64,000 nucleotides of DNA, taken from NCBI GenBank assembly GCA_965601925.1, contig OZ271854.1, positions 4,352,001 to 4,416,000 of the forward strand, in the 5' to 3' direction. The translations under genes and the position numbers were made by a program. The DNA comes from Alkalispirochaeta sp. (GTDB taxonomy: Bacteria > Spirochaetota > Spirochaetia > DSM-27196 > Alkalispirochaetaceae). Below, in pieces: positions 10,110-33,448 of this stretch (its first letter is position 1; every line of letters begins with the position of its first letter). The notes under the pieces are model-generated. The model was not told the DNA's origin. It was given only the letters and a program-made list of their open reading frames with translations, and made no database searches.

Positions 10110-11399
10110 ATGCTCGACTTGAAATATGTGCGTGAAAACCCCGACGTAATCCGCGAGAACGTCCGCCGCCGTAACGTTGCGGCCGATGTCGATCGCGTCA
10201 TCGATCTCTACGACCGACGTCTCGAGGCGATCAAATCGGTTGAGGCCCTCAGGGCGGCGCGTAACGAGAACGCACGCTCGATGAAACAAAAACTCTCCGA
10301 CGAGGAACGGTCGCGCTACGTGGAGGACGGTAAGCGTATCAAGAGCGACATCGCGGCGAAGGAGGAAGAGCTCCGTGCCGTCGAGACGGCGCTCAAAGAG
10401 GCGGCTGAGGCTCTGCCCAATCTGACCCATCCCGACACGCCGGTTGGGAACGACGAGACGGCCAATCGGGAGCTCGAGATCGTCGGCACCGTGCCGCAAT
10501 TCTCCTTTGCCCCGCGCGACCACCTTGACTTGGGACAGTCGCTCGATGTGGTCGACTTTCAACACGCGGCAACCGTGTCGGGGGCGAAGTTTTACTACCT
10601 GCGCAATCAGGGCGTCTATCTCGAGTTGGCTTTGGTCCGATTTGCGCTCGACATCCTTGCCGAGCGCGGGTTTACACCGATGATCACGCCGGACATCGCC
10701 CGAACGGACGTCGTCTCCAATATCGGATTCAACCCCAGAGGTCCGGAATCGAACATCTATAACATCGAGGGTGAAGAGACCAGTCTCGTCGGTACGGCGG
10801 AGATCACCCTCGGAGGATACTACGCCGGCCACACGTTGGACCGCGCGGAACTTCCGATCCGAATGGCCGGCCTGTCACATTGCTTTCGACGCGAGGCGGG
10901 TTCGGCGGGTCAGTTCTCGCGCGGTTTGTATCGAGTGCACCAGTTCACAAAGGTCGAGATGTTCATCGTCGCCCATCCCGATCAATCGGAGGCGCTCCAC
11001 GACGAGATGCTCACCATCGAAAAGGAAATCTTTTCTCGTCTGGAGATTCCGTTTCGTGTGCTCGATATCTGCACAGGCGACCTCGGCGGCCCGGCCTACA
11101 GAAAGTTCGATCTCGAGGCGTGGATGCCCGGTCGCGGCGAGGGCGGAGAGTGGGGAGAAATCACCAGCACTTCAAATTGCACCGACTTCCAGAGCCGCCG
11201 CTTGAACATACGGTACTCGGGAACTACCGACGAGGGCAAAAAAGAAAAGGGATACGCGCATCTGCTCAACGGGACGGCGGTCGCCGTCTCACGAGCGATC
11301 ATCGCGATCCTCGAAAACTTTCAACGGGAAGACGGCTCGGTCGTCATTCCGAGCGCACTTCAGCCCTATACCGGATTCGAGAGGATCCACCGGGAATGA
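10110..11399 (+). CDS. serS: Seryl-tRNA synthetase
   Basis: MLD start, N-terminal coiled coil, GTAE, CFRREAG..RGLYRVHQF.KVE, SNCTDFQSRR, NGT. Confidence 0.97.
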   Translation: MLDLKYVRENPDVIRENVRRRNVAADVDRVIDLYDRRLEAIKSVEALRAARNENARSMKQKLSDEERSRYVEDGKRIKSDIAAKEEELRAVETALKEAAEALPNLTHPDTPVGNDETANRELEIVGTVPQFSFAPRDHLDLGQSLDVVDFQHAATVSGAKFYYLRNQGVYLELALVRFALDILAERGFTPMITPDIARTDVVSNIGFNPRGPESNIYNIEGEETSLVGTAEITLGGYYAGHTLDRAELPIRMAGLSHCFRREAGSAGQFSRGLYRVHQFTKVEMFIVAHPDQSEALHDEMLTIEKEIFSRLEIPFRVLDICTGDLGGPAYRKFDLEAWMPGRGEGGEWGEITSTSNCTDFQSRRLNIRYSGTTDEGKKEKGYAHLLNGTAVAVSRAIIAILENFQREDGSVVIPSALQPYTGFERIHRE

Positions 11400-12523
11400 A
11401 CGTTATGTCGCCGCGCATCGTAGCGGAGATCGGCACCGCCCATGAGGGCGATCGTGAGCGCGCCCGTGCGCTCGTTGAGGCGGCGCGGGAGGCGGGAGCG
11501 GATACGGTGAAGTTTCAGCTCGTCCGTTCGGACGAGATTTTACACCCTCGATCCGGAACGGTTCACCTACCGGGGGGGCACGTCCCGCTCTACGACCGAT
11601 TTCGCGAACTTGAACGCAGCGAAGAGTTCTATACCGACCTTAAACGTATATGCCGCGAGGCCGACATTCGGTTTCTATGCACACCCTTCGGCATCGAGAG
11701 CGCACGGCTTTTGCGCCATATGGAGGTCGAAGAGATCAAGATCGCCTCCCCCGAGCTCAACCATATCCCGCTCCTGCGTGAGGTATCGACCTACCAAAAG
11801 CCGCTCATTTTATCCGTGGGAGTGGCGACCGTAAGCGACATCGACGAGGCGCTGTCGGTGGTACCGTCGAACGCGGTCACCTTGCTACAATGCGTCACCG
11901 CCTATCCGGCGCCCGAGGAGGAGTACAACCTTCGCGTCATCCCGTCGATGCGAGACCTCTTCGGCGTGCCCGTCGGGGTGTCGGACCACTCCCTCGATCC
12001 GGTCATCGTGCCGACGCTGGCCACACTCATGGGCGCCTCGATGATCGAAAAACACATCACATTGAGTCGCACCGACAACGGTCTTGACGATCCTATCGCC
12101 TTGGAGCCCGACGACTTTGCGACGATGGCCAGGGAAGTTCGCGACATTACGGAGCGACTCGCCGACGCCGGCGAAAAGGGCTCGATCGAGTATCATCGCG
12201 CACGGCTGACGATTGAGGAGCGCGCAAAGAGTCGACACGGCTCCGCTCGCGTAGAAAAGGTCTTGGGAACCGGTGTGAAGAGGCTTGCTCCCAGTGAGCA
12301 GCGTAACTACGGGTACACCAACCGCAGCATACACGCCCTCTCGAATCTCTCGGTAGGGCGTACGGTGACGAAGAAAAACACCGCAATCCTGCGCTCCGAG
12401 AAAAATCTTTCACCGGGCCTCCATCCTCGCTACTGGGACTCGATTCTCGGAGCCCGTCTCACGCGCGACATTGCGGCCGGCGACGGCGTTACCTGGGACC
12501 ATCTCCTTTCACGCGACCAATGA
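11396..12523 (+). CDS. N-acetylneuraminate synthase family protein (NeuB/SpsE-like) with C-terminal SAF domain
   Basis: AEIG, VKFQ, TPF, KIASPE, C..AYPAP, SDH and IEKH metal ligands, PGLHP SAF tail. ATGA overlap with the serS stop; the longer ORF from 10880 is an artefact. Confidence 0.9.
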   Translation: MNVMSPRIVAEIGTAHEGDRERARALVEAAREAGADTVKFQLVRSDEILHPRSGTVHLPGGHVPLYDRFRELERSEEFYTDLKRICREADIRFLCTPFGIESARLLRHMEVEEIKIASPELNHIPLLREVSTYQKPLILSVGVATVSDIDEALSVVPSNAVTLLQCVTAYPAPEEEYNLRVIPSMRDLFGVPVGVSDHSLDPVIVPTLATLMGASMIEKHITLSRTDNGLDDPIALEPDDFATMAREVRDITERLADAGEKGSIEYHRARLTIEERAKSRHGSARVEKVLGTGVKRLAPSEQRNYGYTNRSIHALSNLSVGRTVTKKNTAILRSEKNLSPGLHPRYWDSILGARLTRDIAAGDGVTWDHLLSRDQ

Positions 12524-12704: not shown

Positions 12705-15419
12705 TCAGGCGACAAATTTCCGTAGTACCGTATGGAGAATTCCTCCGTTGCGGTAGTACTGCACCTCTACCGGCGTGTCGATTCGACACAACGTCGTGAA
12801 GCTGAACGTCGAGCCGTCCTCCTTCACGACATCCACGCGTACCTCTTGGCGCGGTTGCACCCCGTCGTCGATATGCACGGTAAAGGACTCGAAACCGGTC
12901 AGCCCTAAGCCGGTCCGCGATTCGCCGTTCGTGAACTCGAGCGGAAGGATACCCATACCGACCAAATTGCTCCGGTGGATTCGCTCGAAGCTCTCTGCAA
13001 TTACGACCTTGATCCCGAGGAGTTGCACACCCTTCGCGGCCCAGTCGCGAGACGAACCCATTCCGTAGTCCTTACCGGCGAGCACGACGGTCGGAATACC
13101 CTCAGCCTTGTAGCGCTCCGCAGCGTCGAAGATGCTTACCACCTCACGCGTCGGGGTATAGGTCGTCACCGATCCCTCGGTGCCCGGGGCGAGGAGATTA
13201 CGAAATCGAATGTTCGCGAAGGTGCCGCGCGTCATGATACGATCGTTTCCGCGACGGCTACCGTAGGAGTTGAAGTCTTTGCGCTCTACGCCCCTGTCGA
13301 CGAGAAACTCGCCGGCGGGACTATCGGGTGCGATCGCTCCCGCGGGGCTTATGTGGTCGGTCGTAATGCTGTCCCCGGCGACGACGAGAACCCGCGCGTC
13401 CTTGATCGGCTGAATCGCACGTACATCGAGCCCCATGTCCGTGAAAAACGGCGGTTCCTGAATGTAATTCGAGTCGGCGTTCCAGTCGTACAACGCCGAG
13501 CCGTCGGAGGGAATAGCGTTCCACTCCGGGTTCGAGTCCTCCAACCCGGCATAACTCTCGATGAATGCGTCGCGGTCGAGGGCCTGCCGCACGAACTCAC
13601 CCAGCTCTTCGGTAGTCGGCCAAATCTCCTTGAGGTAGACCGGCTTGCCCCCTTTATCGACGCCGATGGGATCGTTCGCAAGATCGATATCGACGGTGCC
13701 GGCGATCGCATACGCCACGACCAACGGCGGAGACATGAGAAAATTGGCCTTTGTATGCGGATTGATGCGCCCCTCGAAGTTGCGGTTGCCGGATAATACA
13801 CCGGCGACGACCAAGTCGCCCTCCTCGATCCCCTTCGCTACGTTTTCCGGAACGGGCCCGCTGTTACCGATACAGGTCGTGCAGCCGTACCCGACCAGAT
13901 AGAACCCCATCTGCTCGAGATAGGTCATAAGCCCGGTGCGTTGCAGATACTCGGTAACGACCATCGACCCCGGTGCAAAGCTCGTCTTGATCCACGGCTG
14001 TCGGTGCAGTCCGCGCTCGACGGCGTTTTTTGCGAGCAGTCCTGCGCCCAGGAGCACGCTCGGGTTACTCGTGTTGGTACAACTGGTGATGGCGGCAATA
14101 ACCACGTCGCCGTGGGTGAGCTCCTTGGTACCACCGTCGTCCAGCGTGATGGTCGCGTGTCGTGCCTTCTCTTCATCGCTCAACGCATACCCGCGCTCCT
14201 CTACGGGAGCCGCCAGCCCGCGCTGCCACTCGTCCTTTACATCGTTGATCGTAATACGGTCCTGCGGACGCTTGGGACCGGCGATGCTCGCCTCGACACT
14301 TCCGAGATCCAACTCAAGGACGGCCTCAAACTCCGGGTCGGGCGTATCGTCGGTACGGAATACCTCTTGCTCGCGGGCGTACTGTTCGACCGTCTTGATC
14401 AACTCCTCGCTTCGACCGGTCGACCACATATAATCGAGGGTCTGTTGATCGATGGGAAAGTAGCCGACCGTGGCACCGTACTCGGGCGCCATATTCGAGA
14501 TTGTGGCGCGGTCTGGAACGGTCATATGGCTGAGGCCGGTACCGAAGAACTCCACGAACTTGCCGACCACGCCGTGTTCGCGCAGCATTTGCGTTATTCG
14601 CAAGACGAGGTCGGTGGCGGTGATGCCGGGCCTGAGTGCGCCGGTAAGCTTGACCCCGACGACGTCGGGCGCGAGAACGTAGATCGGTTGTCCAAGCATG
14701 GCGGCCTCGGCTTCGATACCGCCGACGCCCCATCCGACGACGCCCAGGCCGTTTATCATCGGCGTATGGCTGTCGGTACCGACCAAAGAATCGAAGTATG
14801 CGACGGTACGTCCGTCGACCTCGCGCACCTGTACACACTTTCCAAGGTATTCAAGGTTCACCTGGTGGCAGATACCGCTGGCCGGCGGTACCACGGAGAA
14901 GTTCTCGAACGCACCCTGTCCCCAACGTAAAAACTCATATCGCTCTCGATTCCGTTGGAACTCGATCTCGGCGTTACGCTTGAGCGCATCGGAGCTGTTA
15001 AAAAAGTCTACCTGTACCGAGTGATCGATGACGAGATCGACGGGTAACTGCGGATTGATCTTCGCCGGATCGCCTCCGAGGCGCGCCATGGCGCTGCGCA
15101 TCGCGGCGAGGTCGACGACACTGGGTACCCCGGTGAAATCCTGTAGCAGCACCCGCGCCGGCTTAAAAGGTAGTTCGACCTTCTTCGGTGAGGCGGGATT
15201 GTACCGACCGATCGACTCCACGTGGTTTCGGGTGACTTCGTATCCGTCTTCGTTTCTGAGAATCGATTCGAGGAGTACACGAATCGAGAAGGGGAATCGT
15301 CGTATCTGTTCGAACCCCTGTTCGGAAAATGCCCGCAGGCTGAAGTACTCCACCTCGCCGAGAGGCGTCGCCATGTGCTTCTTAACGCCGAAGCTGTTTT
15401 CTCGAGACACGTCGCTCAT
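12705..15419 (-). CDS. acnA: Aconitate hydratase A
   Basis: [80 protein letters not shown] before ATG 15419. Confidence 0.97.
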
Positions 15420-15484
15420 CAATTGCACTCCTTTGGGGCTCAATATACCGTTCGCGAAAGGTGGTCGACTACCTTTTTCCTTAC

Positions 15485-15493
15485 TGGTATAGT
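15485..15493 (+). promoter_or_regulatory. Extended -10 promoter of the E1-lipoyl-KASIII fusion gene
   Basis: TGgTATAGT, followed by SD GGAGG 15501-15505 and ATG 15510. Confidence 0.55.
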
Positions 15494-15509
15494 CGCCAAC
15501 GGAGGTCAT

Positions 15510-18500
15510 ATGGAAACAGGCACGATCAAAAATACCGGCACACTCCGACAACTATACCGAACGATGGTTACCGCTCGACAGATGGACCAGATCGAGCAGA
15601 GTTACACGTCTCGCGGAGAGGCTTTTTTCCACGTTTCGGGCGCCGGTCACGAAGGATCGATAGCACTCTATCCTCACCTGAAGGACGGGGATTGGCTTCA
15701 CTGTCACTATCGCGACAAAGCGCTCATGTTGGCTCGCGGCATCTCGCCGGAGATGTTTTTCATGAGCCTGTTCAATAAAGACGCCTCCCACTCCCGCGGA
15801 CGCCAGATGAACGCCCATATGAGTGCACCTGAGTTGAACATTCTCAGCATCGTGGGACCGGTGGGCAACAGCGCGCTTCAGGCCGCCGGCGTCGCCGAGA
15901 TGGTCAAGGATTACGCCGATAATCCGATCGTGCTGTGCTCGATCGGCGAGGGCACGACGCAGGAGAGCGAGGTCATAGAGGCGATCGGACATGCGGTGCG
16001 CGAACAGCTGCCCGTCCTCTTTTTGGTTCAAGACAACTCGTTTGCCATCTCTACAAAGACGCGAGGACAAACCTTTTACTCACGGCCGTCGGGCGAGGCG
16101 GACTCGTTCTACGGCATTCCCATTACGAGGATCGACGGCCGCCACGTTACGGCGGCCATCGATGCCTTCGGTCCGGTCGTCGAGACGATACGCCGCGATC
16201 GCACCCCGCAGATCATCGTTTTTTCGGTAGAACGCTTGCACAACCATACCAACGCCGACGACCAGCGCGCCTATCGCAGCGCCGACGAGATCGAGGAGGT
16301 TGCCCGCACGAGCGATCCGATAGCCCTCCTTCGAGGCGAGTTGACCGAGGCCGGTATATCGGCCGACGAGTTGGACAAAGAAGCGGAGGAGATTCGCTCC
16401 GATCTTATAGAGAGTGCCCGAGCCGCCCAAATGAGCGCCGAACCCGAGCCCTTTCCCGACGCCAAAGCACCGCTACCCGCCCGGCTGACCTCACCCGAGA
16501 GCGAGTATACCGGCTCCGGCGAGGGTGAGCTTGTAATGCTGGAGGCGATCCGGGAGGTCCTTGACGCACGTTTGGCCGGGGACGAACGGGTGACGCTCTT
16601 CGGCGAGGATCTGGAGGATCCCAAGGGAGACGTCTTCGGCATCACCCGCGGTTTGACCCAGAAGTACGGTCGACGGGTGCGCAACAGCCCTTTGAGCGAG
16701 TCGTTGATTCTCGGCGTCTCCATCGGACGCGCCTTAGCCGGCGGACGTCCGGTCGCCTTTTTGCAATTTGCCGATTTCCTGCCTATCGCCTACAACCAGA
16801 TTTTTGCCGAATTGGGGAGCATGTTCTGGCGAACCGACGGGAAATGGAGCGTCCCGGTAATCGTCATGATCACCGCCGGGGGGTACCGTCCGGGCCTCGG
16901 ACCCTTCCACGCTTCCACGTTGGAGGCGCTGGTTGCCCACACACCGGGAGTCGACGTATTCATGCCCTCCAGCGCCGGTGACGCGGCGGGATTGTTGAAC
17001 GCCGCCTTTGAGTCCGAGCGCCCGACGATTTTCTTTTACCCCAAAAATCAACTCAACGACCGATCACGCGCTACCAGCCGCGATACGGCAAAACAGCTCG
17101 TACCCATCGGCCGCGCGCGCCACGTGACGCGCGGTGAAGACATCACCATCGTCGGCTACGGCAACACGATTCCTCTGGCCGCCCGGGCGGCCGCCGTACT
17201 GGAAACGCACGGCGTCGGCGTCGACCTCATCGATCTACGCAGCCTCGTGCCCTGGGATGTGGATACCGTGGTGGCCAGTGTCGAGCGGACCGGCCGTTTG
17301 ATCGTCGCCCACGAAGACAACCATACGGCAGGATTCGGTGCGGAGGTCGTCTCCACCATCGCCGAGAAGAGTCGTCGTCACATTGCGGCGACGCGCGTGA
17401 CGCGGCCGGATACGTATGTGCCGTGTAACTTCGGTAACCAGCTGGAGATTCTCCCGTCGTACAAACGCATTCTCGAATCGGCGGTCGAACTCCTCGGCGG
17501 TTCGATCACGTGGAAAAAGCAAAACGGCGCCGAAACCGGTGTGTTCGATGTAGAGGCGATCGGATCCAGCCCGTCGGACGAGTCGATCTCGATGGTGGAG
17601 TGGATGGTCAAGCCGGGCGATTCGGTGGACGAGGGAGATCTCTTAGCCGAAGTCGAAGCTGACAAAGCGGCCGCGGAGCTGAAATCGCCGGTAGGCGGTA
17701 CGATAGCGGAGCTCTTGATACAGGTCGGAGACTCGGTCCCGGTCGGCACGCCGATCGCGCGGATCGACACCGGTGATAGACCGGTGCACGTCAAACCGCT
17801 GACGCGCGAGGATCCGGGCGAGCCGATCATTACCGGACTTGCGGACTTCGGTGCGGCGGACGTCCACTCGACGGCGGCGCACCAAGGCGGCACCAGACGG
17901 AGCATCGCGCCGGCGGCCACCGACACGTGTTTGATCGCCGGCGTCGCCTCGCGACGCGGTTCACGGATCGTCGAGAACCGGGAAATCGCCGACATGTCTT
18001 CCGATTGGGATGGAGAGGAAATCAAAAAGCGGATCGGTATCGAACGCCGCCCGTGGGTCGCCGACGGAGAGGATACGTTGAGTCTCGCCGTCGATGCGTC
18101 GCGCTCGGTTCTCTCCCAAACCGGCGTATCGCCGCAGGAGATCGACATGGTCATCTTCTCGACCGGTACGCCGACCAGCATCACCCCCTCGATGGCGACC
18201 CTCCTACAGTTCGAGCTCTCGAAAGACGGACCCGAGGTCCGTGGTACCGCGTACGATGTAAACGCGGCGTGCTCGGGATACATATACGGTCTCCAGCAGG
18301 CGTGGGATTTCTTGAGTAACTCCCCGACCGCAAAGGTACTCCTCGTAACGAGTGAGGTATTGAGCCCGCGTCTCAACATGCAGGATTTCGGTACCGCACC
18401 GATCTTCGGGGATGCCGCGACGGCCACCATTCTGGGCGGTGCCGACTCGTCCGTCGCCTCGCGCTCCCTCGCGTCCGTCGACCGCCCGGTAACGTCGGCG

Positions 18501-18890
18501 AAGGGAGAATCCGGCGATTCCCTGCGAGTACCGCAGGATGAGAGCCTTCCCATCACAATGGACGGGCCGGCGGTATATCTGGAAGCGATCAAGGCGATGA
18601 TGGATACCCTCACGTCGAGCGCCGAGGCGGCCGAAGTGAGGCCCGACGGGTTGGACCTGTACATCCCCCATCAAGCCAACCAGCGCATTATTAACGCTAT
18701 ACGCCAGCGCATGAAGCTCGCGCCCGAAAAGATGTACAGCAACATCGCCGATAACGGCAACACCTCATCGAGTACCATTCCGTTGTGTCTCGACGAGCTC
18801 CTGCCGACGCGAAAGCCGGATCAGCTGTGGGGTCTCACGGCCTTCGGTGGCGGATTCACCTTCGGTGCGGCGATCGTGAGAACGCGCTAA
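15510..18890 (+). CDS. Four-domain fusion: 2-oxoacid dehydrogenase E1alpha + E1beta + lipoyl domain + 3-oxoacyl-ACP synthase III (FabH-like), 1126 aa
   Basis: E1alpha: GHE, HYRD, SRGRQM, ThDP motif GEG..N, HTNADD. E1beta: GED, PLSE, QFADF, GPFH, DLRSL. Lipoyl domain: EVEADKA (Lys 17664-17666). KAS III triad: AACSG (Cys 18270), PHQAN (His 18669), GNTSS (Asn 18759), and FGGGFT. One uninterrupted frame. Confidence 0.92.
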
Positions 18891-18912
18891 GAGGGGATCG
18901 GCGAATAGGGAC

Positions 18913-18953
18913 AAAAAAAGCCCCGGGGCAAAGGAGGTGAAAATCCCCGGAGC
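18913..18953 (-). terminator. Intrinsic terminator downstream of msrB; 16-nt loop contains an anti-SD sequence
   Basis: On the minus strand: GCTCCGGGG - ATTTTCACCTCCTTTG - CCCCGGGGC - T7. The stem is fully paired (one G-U) only on the minus strand. Confidence 0.8.
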
Positions 18954-19031
18954 ATGTTGTGATATTCCGTCTCGCTGTCACTATTGAGAACAACGACCGG
19001 GACGATCGGTTACACTACTCTCCGTGTTTTG

Positions 19032-28760: not shown

Positions 28761-30152
28761 TCAAATGTGAATCGCCCATCCCTCGGCGGCGCGAGCCCCT
28801 TCCATAACCGCCTCCGAGAGAGTCGGATGCGCGTGGATCATACTCGCGAGATCCTCGGGTAAGAGCTCGGCCTTCTTGGCGAGCAGTAACTCGTGGATGA
28901 GCTCGGTCGCGTTGTATCCGGCGACGTGAGCCCCCAGAATTTCCCGCGTATCCTTGCGAAATACGATCTTCACTACTCCGTCGCTCTTCTCGACCGCTAC
29001 CGATTTACCGGCGCCCCGATACGGGAAGATCGCCGTTTCGAAGTCGAGCCCCGCTTCGCGTGCACGCTTCTCGGTAAAGCCGAAGCTCCCGATCTCCGGC
29101 TCGCAGTAGACCGCCGAGGGAATCGTATCGGGATCAACGTGGGTCTCGGGATGGTGCCCCGCCATGTGTTCGACGGCGATCTCGCCCTCCTTACTCGCGA
29201 CGTGGGCGAGAAGCGGAGACGGTGTGACGTCACCGATAGCGTAGATGCCCTGCGTGCTCGTCTGATAGTAGTCTCCGAGGACGACGAACCCGCGGTCGGT
29301 CTTCACACCGACGTTCTCGAGACCCAACTCCTCGGTGTTGGGCGCGCGTCCGACGGCGACCAGGAGTAGATCGGCCTTGAGGGACTCTTCGGCTCCGTCG
29401 CTCTTCTCGACGACGAGGGTGACGCCGCGCCCCTTCGTGTCGACGCTTTTGGCCTTTGTTCCGGTCATGGTGGTGACGCCGTAGCGCTTAAACGCTTTCG
29501 CGATAACGTCGACCGCATCGGCATCTTCGATCGGAAGCAGTTGGTCGAGCATCTCAATGACGGTGACATCCACACCGAAGGAACTCATTACGTAGGCAAA
29601 CTCCATCCCGATTGCACCGGCGCCTAGAATGAGGAGCTTCTTCGGGAGTTTCGTGAGACTCAGCATGTCGCGGGACGAGAGAATCTTCTTCCCGTCGAAC
29701 TCGAAACCCGGTATCTCGCGGGGACGCGAACCGGTTGCGATCAGAATATTCTTAGCGGTTACCGTCTGCTTTTCGTCGATCGACACCTCGTGGGGGCCGG
29801 CGAAGCGCGCCGTTCCGTCGATATAGGCTATTTTGTTTTTCTTCAGCAGAGCCTGCACGCCCTTCGAGAGCTTGTTTGCCGCGTCACGCGACTTTTGGTG
29901 CACCTTACCGTAATCCAACCCGGCCGTGTCGACCGCTATGCCGATTTTGCGCATGTCGTCGGCGTAATGCGCGATCTCGGCCTGATGGATCAACGCCTTG
30001 GAAGGGATACATCCCCAGTTGAGGCACACCCCACCGGGCGCCTCTTTTTCTACGACCGCGGCGCTCATTCCCAGCTGGGAGGCGCGAATCGCGGCGACAT
30101 AGCCGCCCGGTCCCGCGCCGATCACCAGCAGATCATAATCGTAATTCGCCAC
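28761..30152 (-). CDS. lpdA: Dihydrolipoyl dehydrogenase (E3)
   Basis: GAGPGG, GGVCLNWGCIPSK, GAGAIGME, AIGD, HAHPTLSE. Confidence 0.97.
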   Translation of the reverse strand: MANYDYDLLVIGAGPGGYVAAIRASQLGMSAAVVEKEAPGGVCLNWGCIPSKALIHQAEIAHYADDMRKIGIAVDTAGLDYGKVHQKSRDAANKLSKGVQALLKKNKIAYIDGTARFAGPHEVSIDEKQTVTAKNILIATGSRPREIPGFEFDGKKILSSRDMLSLTKLPKKLLILGAGAIGMEFAYVMSSFGVDVTVIEMLDQLLPIEDADAVDVIAKAFKRYGVTTMTGTKAKSVDTKGRGVTLVVEKSDGAEESLKADLLLVAVGRAPNTEELGLENVGVKTDRGFVVLGDYYQTSTQGIYAIGDVTPSPLLAHVASKEGEIAVEHMAGHHPETHVDPDTIPSAVYCEPEIGSFGFTEKRAREAGLDFETAIFPYRGAGKSVAVEKSDGVVKIVFRKDTREILGAHVAGYNATELIHELLLAKKAELLPEDLASMIHAHPTLSEAVMEGARAAEGWAIHI

Positions 30153-30161
30153 ATAAACCTC

Positions 30162-31463
30162 CTAAAAAATCATCCGTACCGGCTGTTCCATCATCTGCTG
30201 TAGATCGTGGATGAACCGTCCGCCGGCTGCGCCGTCGATCACTCTGTGGTCGCACGAGAGCGTCATCTTCATGATGGTACCAACGCCGAGCGCGCCGTCG
30301 GGCTTTACGACCGGTGTCGCCTTACTCGCTCCTAAGGCCAGGATCGCCGAGCCGGGAGGATTGATGATCGCGGTGAACTCCTCCACCCCGAACGACCCGA
30401 GGTTGCTGATGGTGAAGGTCGCGCCGTTATACTCTTCCGGCTTAAGCTTCCCTTCTCCCGTCTTTCGAATGAGCTCCTGCAGATCGCCGTCGATATCGAC
30501 GATACCGCGGTTTCCACAGTCGCGCACTACGGGAATCATAAGCCCGTTCCCCAGATCGACGGCCAACCCGATGTCGATACTCCCGTACTGCACGATCTTG
30601 TCGTCCTGCCACGACGAGTTAACCACGGGATGACGCTTCAGCGCTTCGGCCGCAAACTTGATGAAAAAGGCGTTGAGGGAAACTTTCGTCGGCAGCGCTT
30701 CGTTCAACATCTTGCGAGCCGCAATGATGTTCGTCATTTCTACCGACGTCTTCACGTAGAAGTGGGGGGCGCTGAACTTACTCGCTACCACGCGGCGCGC
30801 AATGGCGACTCGTTTTCCCGCAACGGGAATGACCTCATCCTCACGTGCCGGCGACGAGACGAATGCCCCGGACGCGGGCGAAGCGGCGACCGCTGCGGAG
30901 GAGACGCCGCGGAAGCTTTCGATATCGCGCTTCACGATACGTCCCGCCGGGCCGCTCCCTTTTACCAGCGCGAGATTGATATTACGCTCCGCCGCTAACT
31001 TGACCGCCAAGGGGCTCGCCTTTACGTGAGTGCCGGTCGCTGTTTGGGCGACGCGCGCCGGCTCGCTCGGGGTACGGTCGGCGGCCGGCGCCTCTTCTCG
31101 CGGCGGCGCCTCGACGGCGGGGGGAGGCGTCTCCGGCGGCGCTTCCGGCGCCGGAACGGCAGCTGAGGATGGCCCACCCGAGCCCTCGTCCGCGATCTCT
31201 TTCTCGATCGCCGCAAGGTCTTCGCCCTTCTCGCCGAAAATCGCAATCGTCTGTCCGACTCTGGCGTTACCGCCTTCGCCGACGACGATCTTTACGATCG
31301 TGCCGTCTTGCGGCGATTCATAATCCATAGAGGCTTTATCGGTCTCGACCTCACACAGTACGTCGCCCGCGGAGACCTCGTCACCCTCTTTGACGTTCCA
31401 ACTGGTTATCGTGCCCTCCTCCATCGTGGGGGAGAGGGCGGTCATCGGTATCTTTTCAGCCAT
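30162..31463 (-). CDS. pdhC: Pyruvate dehydrogenase E2 dihydrolipoamide acetyltransferase
   Basis: Lipoyl domain ETDKA, Pro/Ala linker, E3-binding ASPLA..GSGP.GRI, catalytic DHRVIDG. Confidence 0.95.
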   Translation of the reverse strand: MAEKIPMTALSPTMEEGTITSWNVKEGDEVSAGDVLCEVETDKASMDYESPQDGTIVKIVVGEGGNARVGQTIAIFGEKGEDLAAIEKEIADEGSGGPSSAAVPAPEAPPETPPPAVEAPPREEAPAADRTPSEPARVAQTATGTHVKASPLAVKLAAERNINLALVKGSGPAGRIVKRDIESFRGVSSAAVAASPASGAFVSSPAREDEVIPVAGKRVAIARRVVASKFSAPHFYVKTSVEMTNIIAARKMLNEALPTKVSLNAFFIKFAAEALKRHPVVNSSWQDDKIVQYGSIDIGLAVDLGNGLMIPVVRDCGNRGIVDIDGDLQELIRKTGEGKLKPEEYNGATFTISNLGSFGVEEFTAIINPPGSAILALGASKATPVVKPDGALGVGTIMKMTLSCDHRVIDGAAGGRFIHDLQQMMEQPVRMIF

Positions 31464-31467
31464 CGTC

Positions 31468-32448
31468 CTACTCCTTGTAACTCACTCGCTTCGCGGCATG
31501 TACGATTTTTTCTACCGACGGCTGGATCGCCAACTCGAGGGTATGGTTATACGGCATGGGAACGTCTTCGCTGTGTACCAACTCCACGGGCGCATCGAGA
31601 TCGTCAAAACAGTTTTTGCTGATCAACCACGCCACGTGAGAACCGACACTGGCGATCGGCCACGCCTCGTCGACGACGACGGCACGATTGGTTTTGCGCA
31701 CACTGGCGTAGATCGTCTCCTCGTCGATCGGACGCAAGGACCGCAGATCGACGATTTCGGCGTCCAAGCCGATGTCGGCGAGTCGGTCCGCCGCCTCCTC
31801 GACCATGCGCAAAGGCTTGCCGAAACCGATCAAGGAGACATCTTTTCCGGTTCGTTTCACGTCGGCCTTCCCGATCGGAACGAGATACTCCTCCTCGGGC
31901 ACCTCGCCGGTCCAGGCGTACGCGAGTTCGCTCTCGAGAAAGACGACGGGGTTGTCGTCGCGAATCGCCGACTTCAACAGCCCCTTGGCGTCGTACGGCG
32001 TGTACGGTGCAACGACCTTGAGGCCGGGAATGTGTGCAAAGTAGCTCTGGAGCGCCTGAGAGTGCTGGCTCGAAAGATACTCCGCCGGGCCGTTGGGTCC
32101 TCTAAAGACGATCGGCACATTCAATTGTCCGCCGGACATGTGCCTCATTTTGGCGGCGTTGTTGACGACCTGGTCGAGGGCCAACAGCGCAAAGTTAAAG
32201 GTCATCCACTCGACGATCGGCCGCAGACCGACCGACGCTGCGCCGACGGCCAAGCCGGTAAATCCGAGCTCCGCGATCGGCGTATCGAGTATACGCTTCG
32301 GACCGTACTTATCCAGGAGCCCTTTGCTAACCTTGTAGGCTCCGTTGTACTCGCCGACCTCCTCGCCGAGAAGAAAAACCTTCTCGTCTCGAGCCATCTC
32401 CTCGTCCATCGCCTGACGAAGGGCGTCACGCATTTGAATCTCTGGCAT
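31468..32448 (-). CDS. pdhB: Pyruvate dehydrogenase E1 beta
   Basis: GEEVGEYNGAYK, DTPIAE, MTFNFA, RGPNG, QHSQ, LRSLRP. ATG 32448 after SD AGGAGAGG. Confidence 0.95.
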   Translation of the reverse strand: MPEIQMRDALRQAMDEEMARDEKVFLLGEEVGEYNGAYKVSKGLLDKYGPKRILDTPIAELGFTGLAVGAASVGLRPIVEWMTFNFALLALDQVVNNAAKMRHMSGGQLNVPIVFRGPNGPAEYLSSQHSQALQSYFAHIPGLKVVAPYTPYDAKGLLKSAIRDDNPVVFLESELAYAWTGEVPEEEYLVPIGKADVKRTGKDVSLIGFGKPLRMVEEAADRLADIGLDAEIVDLRSLRPIDEETIYASVRKTNRAVVVDEAWPIASVGSHVAWLISKNCFDDLDAPVELVHSEDVPMPYNHTLELAIQPSVEKIVHAAKRVSYKE

Positions 32449-32473
32449 CTTACCTCTCCTATCGTCCAGGGCC

Positions 32474-33448
32474 TCAGGCCAGGATATCCTCGTACATCGT
32501 GTGGAGCGCCGGCTCTTCACTCTTCTCGGCGAAGTCGACCGCCTCTTTGACCTGTTGCTTGACCTCTTCGTCGAGCGCCTTGAAGTCCTCTTCACTCATC
32601 ATCTTCGCCTCGATCATCTGACTTTTGAGCTGTACGATCGGATCCTGTTTTTTGTACTGCTCCAATTCGTCCTTGGTCCGATACTTTCCGGGATCACTGA
32701 TCGAATGGCCCTTGTAGCGGTAGGTTTTGAGGTCGACGAGGCACGCAGTGCCCGTCTCGCGTGTCTTTGCGATGATCTCGCCGAGACGCTCGTACACTTC
32801 GATGAAGTCCATTCCGCTTATCTCGTACCCCGGTAGATCGTATCCCGCAGCCTTTACGGCGAAATCCTCGACACCGGAGATGCGGTGCACCGCGGTTCCC
32901 ATACCGAAATGGTTGTTCTCCACGATGTAGACGACCGGCAGGTTCCAGATCTTGGCCAGGTTGAGACTCTCGTGAAAGGCTCCCTGGTGGATCGCTCCGT
33001 CGCCGAAAAAACAGAGCGTCACCCCGCCGTCCTCGTCGTACATCTGCTTGAAGGCGACCCCCGTCGCGATCGGTATCTGCGCGCCGACGATTCCGTTGCC
33101 CCCGAGAAAGTGGCGTTCGGCGTCGAACATGTGCATCGACCCACCCTTGCCGCGCACGCATCCGGTGATCTTACCGAAGAGTTCCGCCATGAGGCTCTTC
33201 GGGTCCATACCCACGGCGATGGCGTGGCCGTGATCGCGGTAGGAGGTCAACATGTAGTCCTTCGCCAGATCGATCGCGGCGACCGCGCCGACCGCCACCG
33301 CCTCCTGTCCGTTGTAGAGGTGCAGAAACCCTCCGATTTTACGGAGACCGTACATCTGGGCCGCCCGCTCCTCAAACCGACGAATCAGCAGCATGTCGCG
33401 CAACGCCGGCTTGAGAAACTCCGGCTCGTATTTGCTTACATCACTCAT
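32474..33448 (-). CDS. pdhA: Pyruvate dehydrogenase E1 alpha
   Basis: GFLHLYNGQEA, YRDH, GKGGSMH, FGDGA..N, YRYKGHSISDP. Confidence 0.96.
   Translation of the reverse strand: MSDVSKYEPEFLKPALRDMLLIRRFEERAAQMYGLRKIGGFLHLYNGQEAVAVGAVAAIDLAKDYMLTSYRDHGHAIAVGMDPKSLMAELFGKITGCVRGKGGSMHMFDAERHFLGGNGIVGAQIPIATGVAFKQMYDEDGGVTLCFFGDGAIHQGAFHESLNLAKIWNLPVVYIVENNHFGMGTAVHRISGVEDFAVKAAGYDLPGYEISGMDFIEVYERLGEIIAKTRETGTACLVDLKTYRYKGHSISDPGKYRTKDELEQYKKQDPIVQLKSQMIEAKMMSEEDFKALDEEVKQQVKEAVDFAEKSEEPALHTMYEDILA

Follow-up and report, generated by a model that had tools for sequence, protein, structure and literature searches.

A single gene in the stretch of Alkalispirochaeta sp. DNA analysed here (64,000 nucleotides of contig OZ271854.1, hereafter the window) encodes a protein in which the E1α and E1β parts of a 2-oxoacid dehydrogenase, a lipoyl domain and a FabH-type 3-oxoacyl-acyl carrier protein (ACP) synthase III (KAS III) follow one another in one chain. 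We consider it rather probable that this fusion primes iso-branched acyl chains without coenzyme A (CoA), as a dedicated channel beside ordinary FabH, where the reaction steps, the substrate and the independence from CoA are predicted. The core idea, that KAS III replaces the E2 acyltransferase, had been proposed in an earlier sequence-only reading of the window and appears supported by three independent lines, namely a KAS III part that has lost the CoA clamp, the exchange of acceptor domains on the same chassis and the match with an iso-branched hydroxy acid in the Martinezella (tropici-rhizogenes) clade of Rhizobium. Three details of that reading, a GEG motif as substrate marker, a promoter of the gene's own and the choice of LpdA as partner, gained no support.

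A conserved single-chain family

The gene was read as an unbroken frame of 1126 amino acids without a stop, with six Pfam domains in the order that the sequence-only reading had described, and the KAS part was matched by ACP_syn_III (915-979) and ACP_syn_III_C (1039-1124). The E1 part is of the heterotetramer type, with the thiamine diphosphate (ThDP) motif and the catalytic His and Glu. The lysine for lipoylation (K719) and the Cys-His-Asn triad (C921, H1054 and N1084, with codons at 18270, 18669 and 18759 of the window) were found intact, as had been claimed. The reported lack of an E2 core and an E3-binding domain was also borne out, as neither 2-oxoacid_dh (PF00198) nor E3_binding (PF02817) was matched in the fusion protein by Pfam, while the E2 of the window's own pyruvate dehydrogenase (PDH) matched both in the same scan.

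The host genome is a single 5.05-Mb contig, 96.7% complete. The 120 homologues listed, at 56-94% identity and 898-1189 aa in length, the nearest of which carry the Alkalispirochaeta label, all share the six Pfam families of the fusion, and an E2 or E3-binding family occurs in none of them; because the combination recurs in all of them, the architecture is not an assembly artefact. A frameshift or chimera was ruled out by this shared layout together with the 38 end-to-end matches found among the best 150 when representatives at 50% identity were searched with a profile. The matches in the ESM Atlas were clusters of the fusion family alone, with 130 and 53 members. Database entries name these proteins simply FabH or 2-oxoisovalerate dehydrogenase, and no description of a lipoyl-KAS III fusion or of such a priming route was found in the literature searched, a coverage that leaves out most subscription journals.

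The fusion is a conserved family that is spread patchily over several phyla. Named carrier loci were found in Spirochaetota, Planctomycetota, Verrucomicrobiota, Lentisphaerales, Fibrobacterales, Xenococcus, Accumulibacter, Syntrophobacteraceae, Hydrogenedentota, Marinobacter halodurans, Devosia and Rhizobium. The gene was present in 46/57 genomes of the host's order, in 43 as one top-scoring frame; in the other three it was intact as two segments of a single frame (G596), divided across contigs (G752) or broken (G701). The last of these, a single-contig genome, holds the fusion in pieces with a stop (C1 813834-817290 and 1146697-1148323) along with additional partial copies. A phylum-wide sample gave 8 carriers among 301 genomes, and 19 of the 121 Devosiaceae genomes carry the gene. 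Carriage on plasmids was rejected, as none of the 136 matching plasmid records covers 80% of the query. In Marinobacter halodurans (L090) the GC content of the gene (46%) is below that of the flanking DNA (53-55%), a transposase-like open reading frame (ORF) lies upstream, and the gene is likely to be a recent arrival.

The E1-lipoyl chassis is also joined to other C-terminal domains. Among 30 odd-length representatives scanned for domains, 11 end in an E2 core, P0151 carries a thioesterase, P0204 an E2 and ACP, P0186 (2895 aa) E2-ACP-KS-MT-C-A, a line of ketosynthase (KS), methyltransferase and non-ribosomal peptide synthetase (NRPS), P0135 (1942 aa) has a ketoreductase (KR) and ACP behind KAS III, and P0148 has a GNAT-like tail with a weak match (E 0.27). 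These layouts suggest that the C-terminal slot behaves as an exchangeable acceptor of the lipoyl-bound acyl group, and P0186, P0204, P0135, P0151 and P0148 are possible 2-oxoacid-fed loading modules of polyketide synthase (PKS) or NRPS lines. The single-chain E1αβ-lipoyl-E2 proteins (P0155, P0183, P0187, P0196 and others) share the N-terminal chassis of the fusion, keep the DHR..G motif of E2 intact and differ in ending with E2 instead of KAS III. In a FastTree phylogeny of the E1 part of 84 sequences, rooted at the midpoint and with many weakly supported nodes, the E2 forms mostly fall outside the main KAS clade, as the nearest outside branches, whereas P0155 (E2), P0151 and P0148 are nested within it; these three are clusters of 1-2 sequences and could be chimeras. 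Two Streptomyces plasmid matches (H1, H4) hold a fused E1α/β gene annotated next to a non-ribosomal peptide synthetase.

Catalytic parts of the fusion and a proposed mechanism

For the KAS part, 259 distinct fused domains, many of them close kin, were compared on the numbering of E. coli FabH, with 120 stand-alone spirochaete FabH, one related clade of relatives of the host genome's own FabH, as controls. W32 was present in 2/259 and R151 in 1/259 of the fused domains (E837 and F960 stand at these positions in the present protein), whereas both were present in 120/120 of the stand-alone enzymes. The catalytic positions were kept, with C112, H244 and N247 in 259/259 and N274 in 258/259, and over the full-length members C921 and H1054 were found in 263/263 and N1084 in 262/263. 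R249 was retained in 257/259, position 257 is R or K in 251/259 and position 256 is mostly Gln, and the basic patch for binding ACP (R249, K256/K257) is present. As we take W32 and R151 to stack the CoA adenine and R249 to bind ACP, the predicted CoA adenine clamp is lost in the fused KAS domains and the predicted ACP-binding arginine is retained. Loss of contacts made by CoA only would be expected if the donor were a protein-bound thioester and the acceptor malonyl-ACP. The fold, the triad, R249, F304 and the GFTxG tail are otherwise those of stand-alone FabH (31% identity to that of E. coli), and the differences lie at the T28, W32, R151 and N210 positions, which are altered, and at F87 and V215, which are mostly Thr and Glu. 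The domain scored 251 bits with NF006829 (cut-off 249) and 227 with TIGR00747 (cut-off 292).

The E1 part is by sequence of the branched-chain type. The best solved relatives of E1α are the Thermus enzyme (1um9_A, 137 bits) and the α subunit of the human branched-chain 2-oxoacid dehydrogenase (BCKDH, 114 bits), and PDH α gave at most 86 bits. Its landmarks are F40, Y67-R68, GRQM..H (97-103), G[DE]G..N176 and H246. Counted over the 263 distinct full-length members, the letters of GRQM are kept in 263, 261, 255 and 253, residues F40, Y67, R68, H103 and N176 and the QFADF motif are nearly or fully invariant, and H246, E397 and H467 each occur in 263/263. F40, Y67, M100 and H103 align with what we take to be the branched-substrate pocket of Thermus E1, and the catalytic roles given here are presumed likewise. 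Assignment to the branched-chain type, as first proposed, is supported by the E1α scores and GRQM; the use of GEG as a marker of substrate was refuted, as 208 of the 263 members have GDG and 55 have GEG. E1β is less decisive (200 bits with BCKDH β, 187 with PDH β of the Bacillus type), and NCBIfam holds no curated assignment for the fusion E1. The other E1s of the host genome are of PDH, acetoin, 2-oxoglutarate dehydrogenase (OGDH) and fused 819-aa types, each with its own E2, and GRQM is absent from all of them. The 819-aa E1 lies with Lpd, E2 and a DeoR-like regulator at G000:C1:3594947-3600980 (-), and the acetoin-type E1α/E1β/E2 operon at G000:C1:243780-247219 (-).

The lysine of the lipoyl domain was kept in 262/263 aligned full-length members. 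In 186 motif-matched sequences the spacing between the end of E1β and this lysine is near-constant (73-81 residues, median 75), while that from the lysine to the KAS Cys is variable (5th-95th percentile 191-224). Because the one distance is near-fixed and the other is not, we infer that the arm would be held close to E1 and the KAS domain carried on a flexible tether. The host genome has lipA and LplA/LipB-family genes, and at least three Lpd genes lie within its 2-oxoacid dehydrogenase operons. The LpdA encoded in the window, which had been named as the E3 partner, was a guess only, and the Lpd of the PDH operon is one among at least three candidates. A free Lpd that reoxidises a lipoyl arm has a precedent in the H and L proteins of the glycine cleavage system.

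In the proposed mechanism, E1 with ThDP would decarboxylate a branched 2-oxoacid and acylate the lipoamide on K719. The most likely substrate would be 2-oxoisocaproate from leucine, which would give isovaleryl units and iso-odd chains. The lipoyl domain would then present its acyl-dihydrolipoamide arm to KAS III, where C921 would take over the acyl group. Malonyl-ACP, supplied by the FabD and ACP of the host, would dock at the R1059 patch and be decarboxylated by H1054 and N1084, and the branched 3-oxoacyl-ACP so formed would enter type II fatty acid synthesis (FAS II). A free Lpd of the host would reoxidise the lipoyl arm in trans.

Fatty acids of the carriers and rival explanations

A search with a Rhizobiales copy of the gene as query gave named Rhizobium carriers from the tropici-rhizogenes clade only. 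In the GTDB genus Rhizobium an intact gene was found in 33/121 genomes, and the 32 close carriers (87-100% identity) are exactly the 32 genomes with SucA at least 95% identical to that of R. rhizogenes. The clade (Martinezella) thus has 32/32 carriers and the others 1/89 (G311, with a divergent copy of 60% identity), and the gene was found in 0/299 other scored Rhizobiaceae genomes, a count that takes G082 as a non-carrier and leaves out one genome without a score. In the accessible part of PMC7656272 (Table 3), C15:0 iso 3-OH amounts to 3.3% and 1.1% in R. dioscoreae S-93 and S-62, 5.7% in R. miluonense, 2.9% in R. hainanense, 7.8% in R. multihospitium and 14.0% in R. tropici CIAT 899, and is undetected in R. 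leguminosarum USDA 2370. The description of Martinezella includes iso-C15:0 3-OH and those of Arminella and Gillisella, as far as excerpted from PMC13077888, are without it. Among these type strains S-93, HAMBI 2971, CCBAU 57015 and HAMBI 2975 are named carriers. In R. lusitanum P1-7 and Devosia insulae the E2 cores are those of PDH and OGDH only and the fusion is the sole E1 of the GRQM type.

The Rhizobium gene lies among genes for ornithine lipids. olsE is directly upstream on the same strand in 39/40 loci (the 40th locus begins inside the gene), olsC lies within 5 kb downstream in 37/40, and both pass the NCBIfam cut-offs, a neighbourhood that would tie the fusion to membrane lipids in Rhizobium. 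The order in Martinezella is olsE, fusion, olsC and a sycA-like ClC channel (e.g. L145:3735-10935, and 39 further loci); the channel gene is next only in some loci, and many strains have about 4 kb of other genes before olsC. The portion of PMC3557214 at hand treats olsC and sycA and does not mention the fusion gene there. Outside Rhizobium, iso-C13:0 and iso-C15:0 are major acids of Oceanispirochaeta isolates according to the part of PMC11129491 consulted, and three Oceanispirochaeta metagenome-assembled genomes (L087, L095 and L096) carry the fusion. Overall the phenotype evidence consists of two contrasts, a strong one for the clade and a weak one.

The expectation that carriers would lack a stand-alone FabH was not borne out. 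The host genome has two with W32 and R151, one of them beside fabD-fabG-fabF, and since carriers keep FabH the fusion is an added starter beside it and not a replacement. The companion expectation on the E2 of BCKDH was answered in part, as E2 cores in general are present (4 in the host genome, 2-6 across carriers) and the canonical branched-chain E1 is missing in 5/6 carriers. The host genome has FabD and one ACP hit, which lies far from the fabH-fabD-fabG-fabF cluster, and PlsX of E. coli found no match there by tblastn at E 1e-6. A third KAS III-like gene (G000:C1:2447033-2448169, minus strand) has Cys and His, a divergent tail and a DarB/StlD-like appearance by eye, and adjoins a flavin monooxygenase-like ORF.

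Several observations weigh against a CoA-free channel for iso-branched primers. An ordinary FabH is kept in all six carriers checked (the host and 5/5 others), Marinobacter halodurans also has a canonical BCKDH, and the gene is dispensable in places, as it was not found in 11/57 genomes of the order, two of them of the same genus. The lipoyl-lysine arm, which we take to be shorter than phosphopantetheine, puts its reach to C921 in question. The stand-alone FabH controls are a single related group, P0168 and P0169 keep W32 (both on a separate E1 branch), and W833, four residues upstream of the lost position, is conserved in the spirochaete branch (174/192), is paired with W32 across a gap in the BLAST alignment to E. 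coli FabH and might partly replace it; W833 is lacking in Rhizobium, Devosia and planctomycete copies. As regards fatty acids, CIAT 899 is not among the named loci and matches at species level only, Oceanispirochaeta matches at genus level only, and USDA 2370, whose genome was not searched by name, has 1.2% C17:0 iso in the Table 3 excerpt of PMC7656272. Plasmids of the leguminosarum group carry a canonical Bkd operon, yet the group is without the 3-OH iso acid in that source. Martinezella gained the gene once, so that its link with the iso acid counts as one data point, the gene could be riding along with olsE, and many Martinezella genomes have a second fused E1, which in G002 is adjoined by an E2.

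Two of the rival explanations concern CoA and the substrate. CoA could still take part, either because KAS III hands the arm-bound acyl group to CoA, as an E2 substitute in a compact branched-chain dehydrogenase, or because a host E2 core in trans makes acyl-CoA for the fused KAS. We regard this as unlikely: the acylation of FabH by acyl-CoA is presumably reversible, between 2 and 6 E2 cores occur in carriers, W833 might do the work of W32 in spirochaetes and the fusion is the sole GRQM-type E1 in 5/6 carriers, which leaves no other obvious candidate for a catabolic role, but R151 is lost in 258/259 and W32 in 257/259 domains, the copies of Rhizobium, Devosia and planctomycetes are also without W833, H244/N274 and R249 would be superfluous in a pure transacylase, and every E2 of the host genome sits with its own E1. 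A CoA-free channel fed by pyruvate or 2-oxobutyrate for straight-chain primers, or by a broad range of substrates with a coincidental iso link, is quite improbable, as E1α is clearly nearer to BCKDH and keeps F40, Y67, M100 and H103 of the presumed pocket, PDH and FabH already serve acetyl priming in carriers, and the carriers are marked by iso acids; the close E1β scores, the lack of a curated E1 assignment and a phenotype argument resting on one clade speak for it.

The other two concern the product. That KAS III acts as a lipoyl:ACP transacylase that loads holo-ACP, with FabF performing the first condensation, would agree with the retained R249, with a side transacylase activity that FabH presumably has and with the QncN/QncL-type systems that deliver to ACP without CoA (PMC6335953, in the part covered); H244, N247 and N274 are nearly invariant, as the decarboxylation of malonyl units would require, and we hold this option to be very unlikely. 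Equally little weight is given to a dedicated acyl chain or small metabolite as the product, such as the 3-hydroxy acyl group of ornithine lipids or lipid A, an ether-lipid precursor or a polyketide starter, an explanation that shares its chemistry with the priming of iso-branched chains. The position between olsE and olsC, the KR and ACP of P0135 and the mostly 3-OH form of the iso acid in Martinezella favour it, but neither conserved biosynthetic neighbours nor a dedicated ACP were seen by eye in 16 non-spirochaete loci, the ols genes are missing at Devosia and planctomycete loci, and iso-C17:0 also occurs in carriers.

Returning to CoA-free priming of iso-branched chains, the chances appear about even that one portable gene provides a second, CoA-independent entry to FAS II, is the source of iso-C15:0 3-OH in the R. 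tropici clade and has spread laterally among spirochaetes, planctomycetes, verrucomicrobia, Devosia and Accumulibacter. If so, a lipoyl arm that donates its acyl group to a ketosynthase would connect two classic enzyme systems in a new way, and the iso acids of the R. tropici clade, which includes the main bean inoculants, would have a gene open to testing, one that stands there beside lipid genes tied to acid tolerance. The iso fatty acid biomarkers of sediments and sludge, the home of many carriers, would then be read differently, and a single CoA-sparing gene for branched primers would be a useful part for engineering E. coli to produce branched fatty acids.

The locus and comparison with known systems

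The fusion gene, whose ATG is preceded by a GGAGG resembling a ribosome-binding site (15501-15505), lies between two genes on the minus strand, the divergent acnA and the convergent msrB. Adjacency to acnA points to synteny among spirochaetes, with no functional link seen, and outside spirochaetes and Rhizobium no neighbour is conserved. A biosynthetic cluster at the fusion loci was ruled out by the spirochaete and non-spirochaete neighbourhoods. The gene had been called monocistronic with its own promoter, of which the former agrees with the gene layout, its only basis, and the latter gained no support, since the one σ70-like site found does not exceed the 1.5 expected by chance. A NeuB/SAF-family synthase gene (window 11399-12523, plus strand) stands right after that of seryl-tRNA synthetase and is kept in 18/27 spirochaete loci.

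Features of the window with their positions and strands
Feature	Position	Strand	Remarks
E1α-E1β-lipoyl-KAS III fusion gene	15510..18890	+	unbroken 1126-aa frame by translation
E1α domain, aa 16-313	15555..16448	+	Pfam E1_dh, 1.7e-42
E1β domains, aa 343-516 (Transket_pyr) and 534-645 (Transketolase_C)	16536..17444	+	Pfam
E1β residues of the fusion			E397, QFADF (419-423), H467
Lipoyl domain, aa 692-752	17583..17765	+	Pfam Biotin_lipoyl
Lipoylation Lys K719	codon 17664-17666	+	
Lipoyl-KAS linker	17781..17921	+	K..TRE.PG.P motif (partly conserved), then Ala/Pro/Ser-rich, length-variable
KAS III (FabH-type) domain	17922..18884	+	C921, H1054, N1084, R1059 (= E. coli R249)
Aconitase gene acnA, divergent neighbour	12705..15419	-	adjoins in 25/27 spirochaete loci
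Possible σ70-type promoter	15465..15493	+	TCGACT-17-TATAGT, TG before -10; 90-bp gap shared with acnA
Candidate small RNA	18912..19014	-	TGTAAC-N14-GTTGTT at 18989-19014, then ~70 nt, GC stem, ACCTCCTTTG loop, U run
Canonical PDH operon	28761..33448	-	E1α, E1β, E2 with E3-binding and catalytic domains, Lpd

A candidate small RNA was found downstream of the fusion gene and also in the spirochaete relatives L016-L019, L020-L026, L029, L042, L077 and L079, where it is preceded by TGTAAC-N14 to 16-GTTGTT, a motif that presumably resembles a promoter for an extracytoplasmic function (ECF) sigma factor and of which the genome has two copies where about 0.6 would be expected. In 13 aligned sequences its 9-bp GC stem bears an invariant ACCTCCTTTG loop, which is anti-Shine-Dalgarno-like, with compensatory change in 2/9 pairs. 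The candidate is single-copy in the genome, has a folding z-score of -1.06 only and found no match in Rfam. It probably also closes the 3' end of the fusion gene.

Branched fatty acids are taught as requiring BCKDH, acyl-CoA and a permissive FabH. The BCKDH complex with FabH, as we take it to operate in Bacillus and Staphylococcus, shares with the fusion the branched-type E1α and E1β, the lipoyl domain and a KAS III with Cys-His-Asn, and likely the net result, a branched 3-oxoacyl-ACP (the structures compared were 1um9, 1dtw and 1zow). The fusion differs in being one chain, in having neither E2 core nor E3-binding domain and in a KAS without W32 and R151; since the E2 core and E3-binding domain are missing, it would have no E2 cage and no acyl-CoA step. 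No E2 gene lies beside it at the host locus, at 27 spirochaete loci or at 16 non-spirochaete loci. On the features compared, the fusion belongs neither with BCKDH, for lack of E2 and E3-binding domain, nor with FabH, for lack of the CoA clamp.

The nearest precedent for delivery from a lipoyl domain to a carrier, in the part of PMC6335953 covered, is given by QncN/QncL/QncM of quinocarcin and SclQ1-4 of scleric acid, in which E1-like ThDP and lipoyl domains deliver an acyl group to a carrier. In these systems, according to the same text, the donor is a ketose phosphate and the unit glycolyl, an E2-type acyltransferase is kept, and a dedicated ACP is encoded alongside, with the genes inside NRPS clusters. 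The acceptor in the fusion is instead a condensing enzyme, and its gene stands alone, without acyltransferase domain or dedicated ACP. There is a fair chance that its chemistry is a new route of fatty acid initiation.

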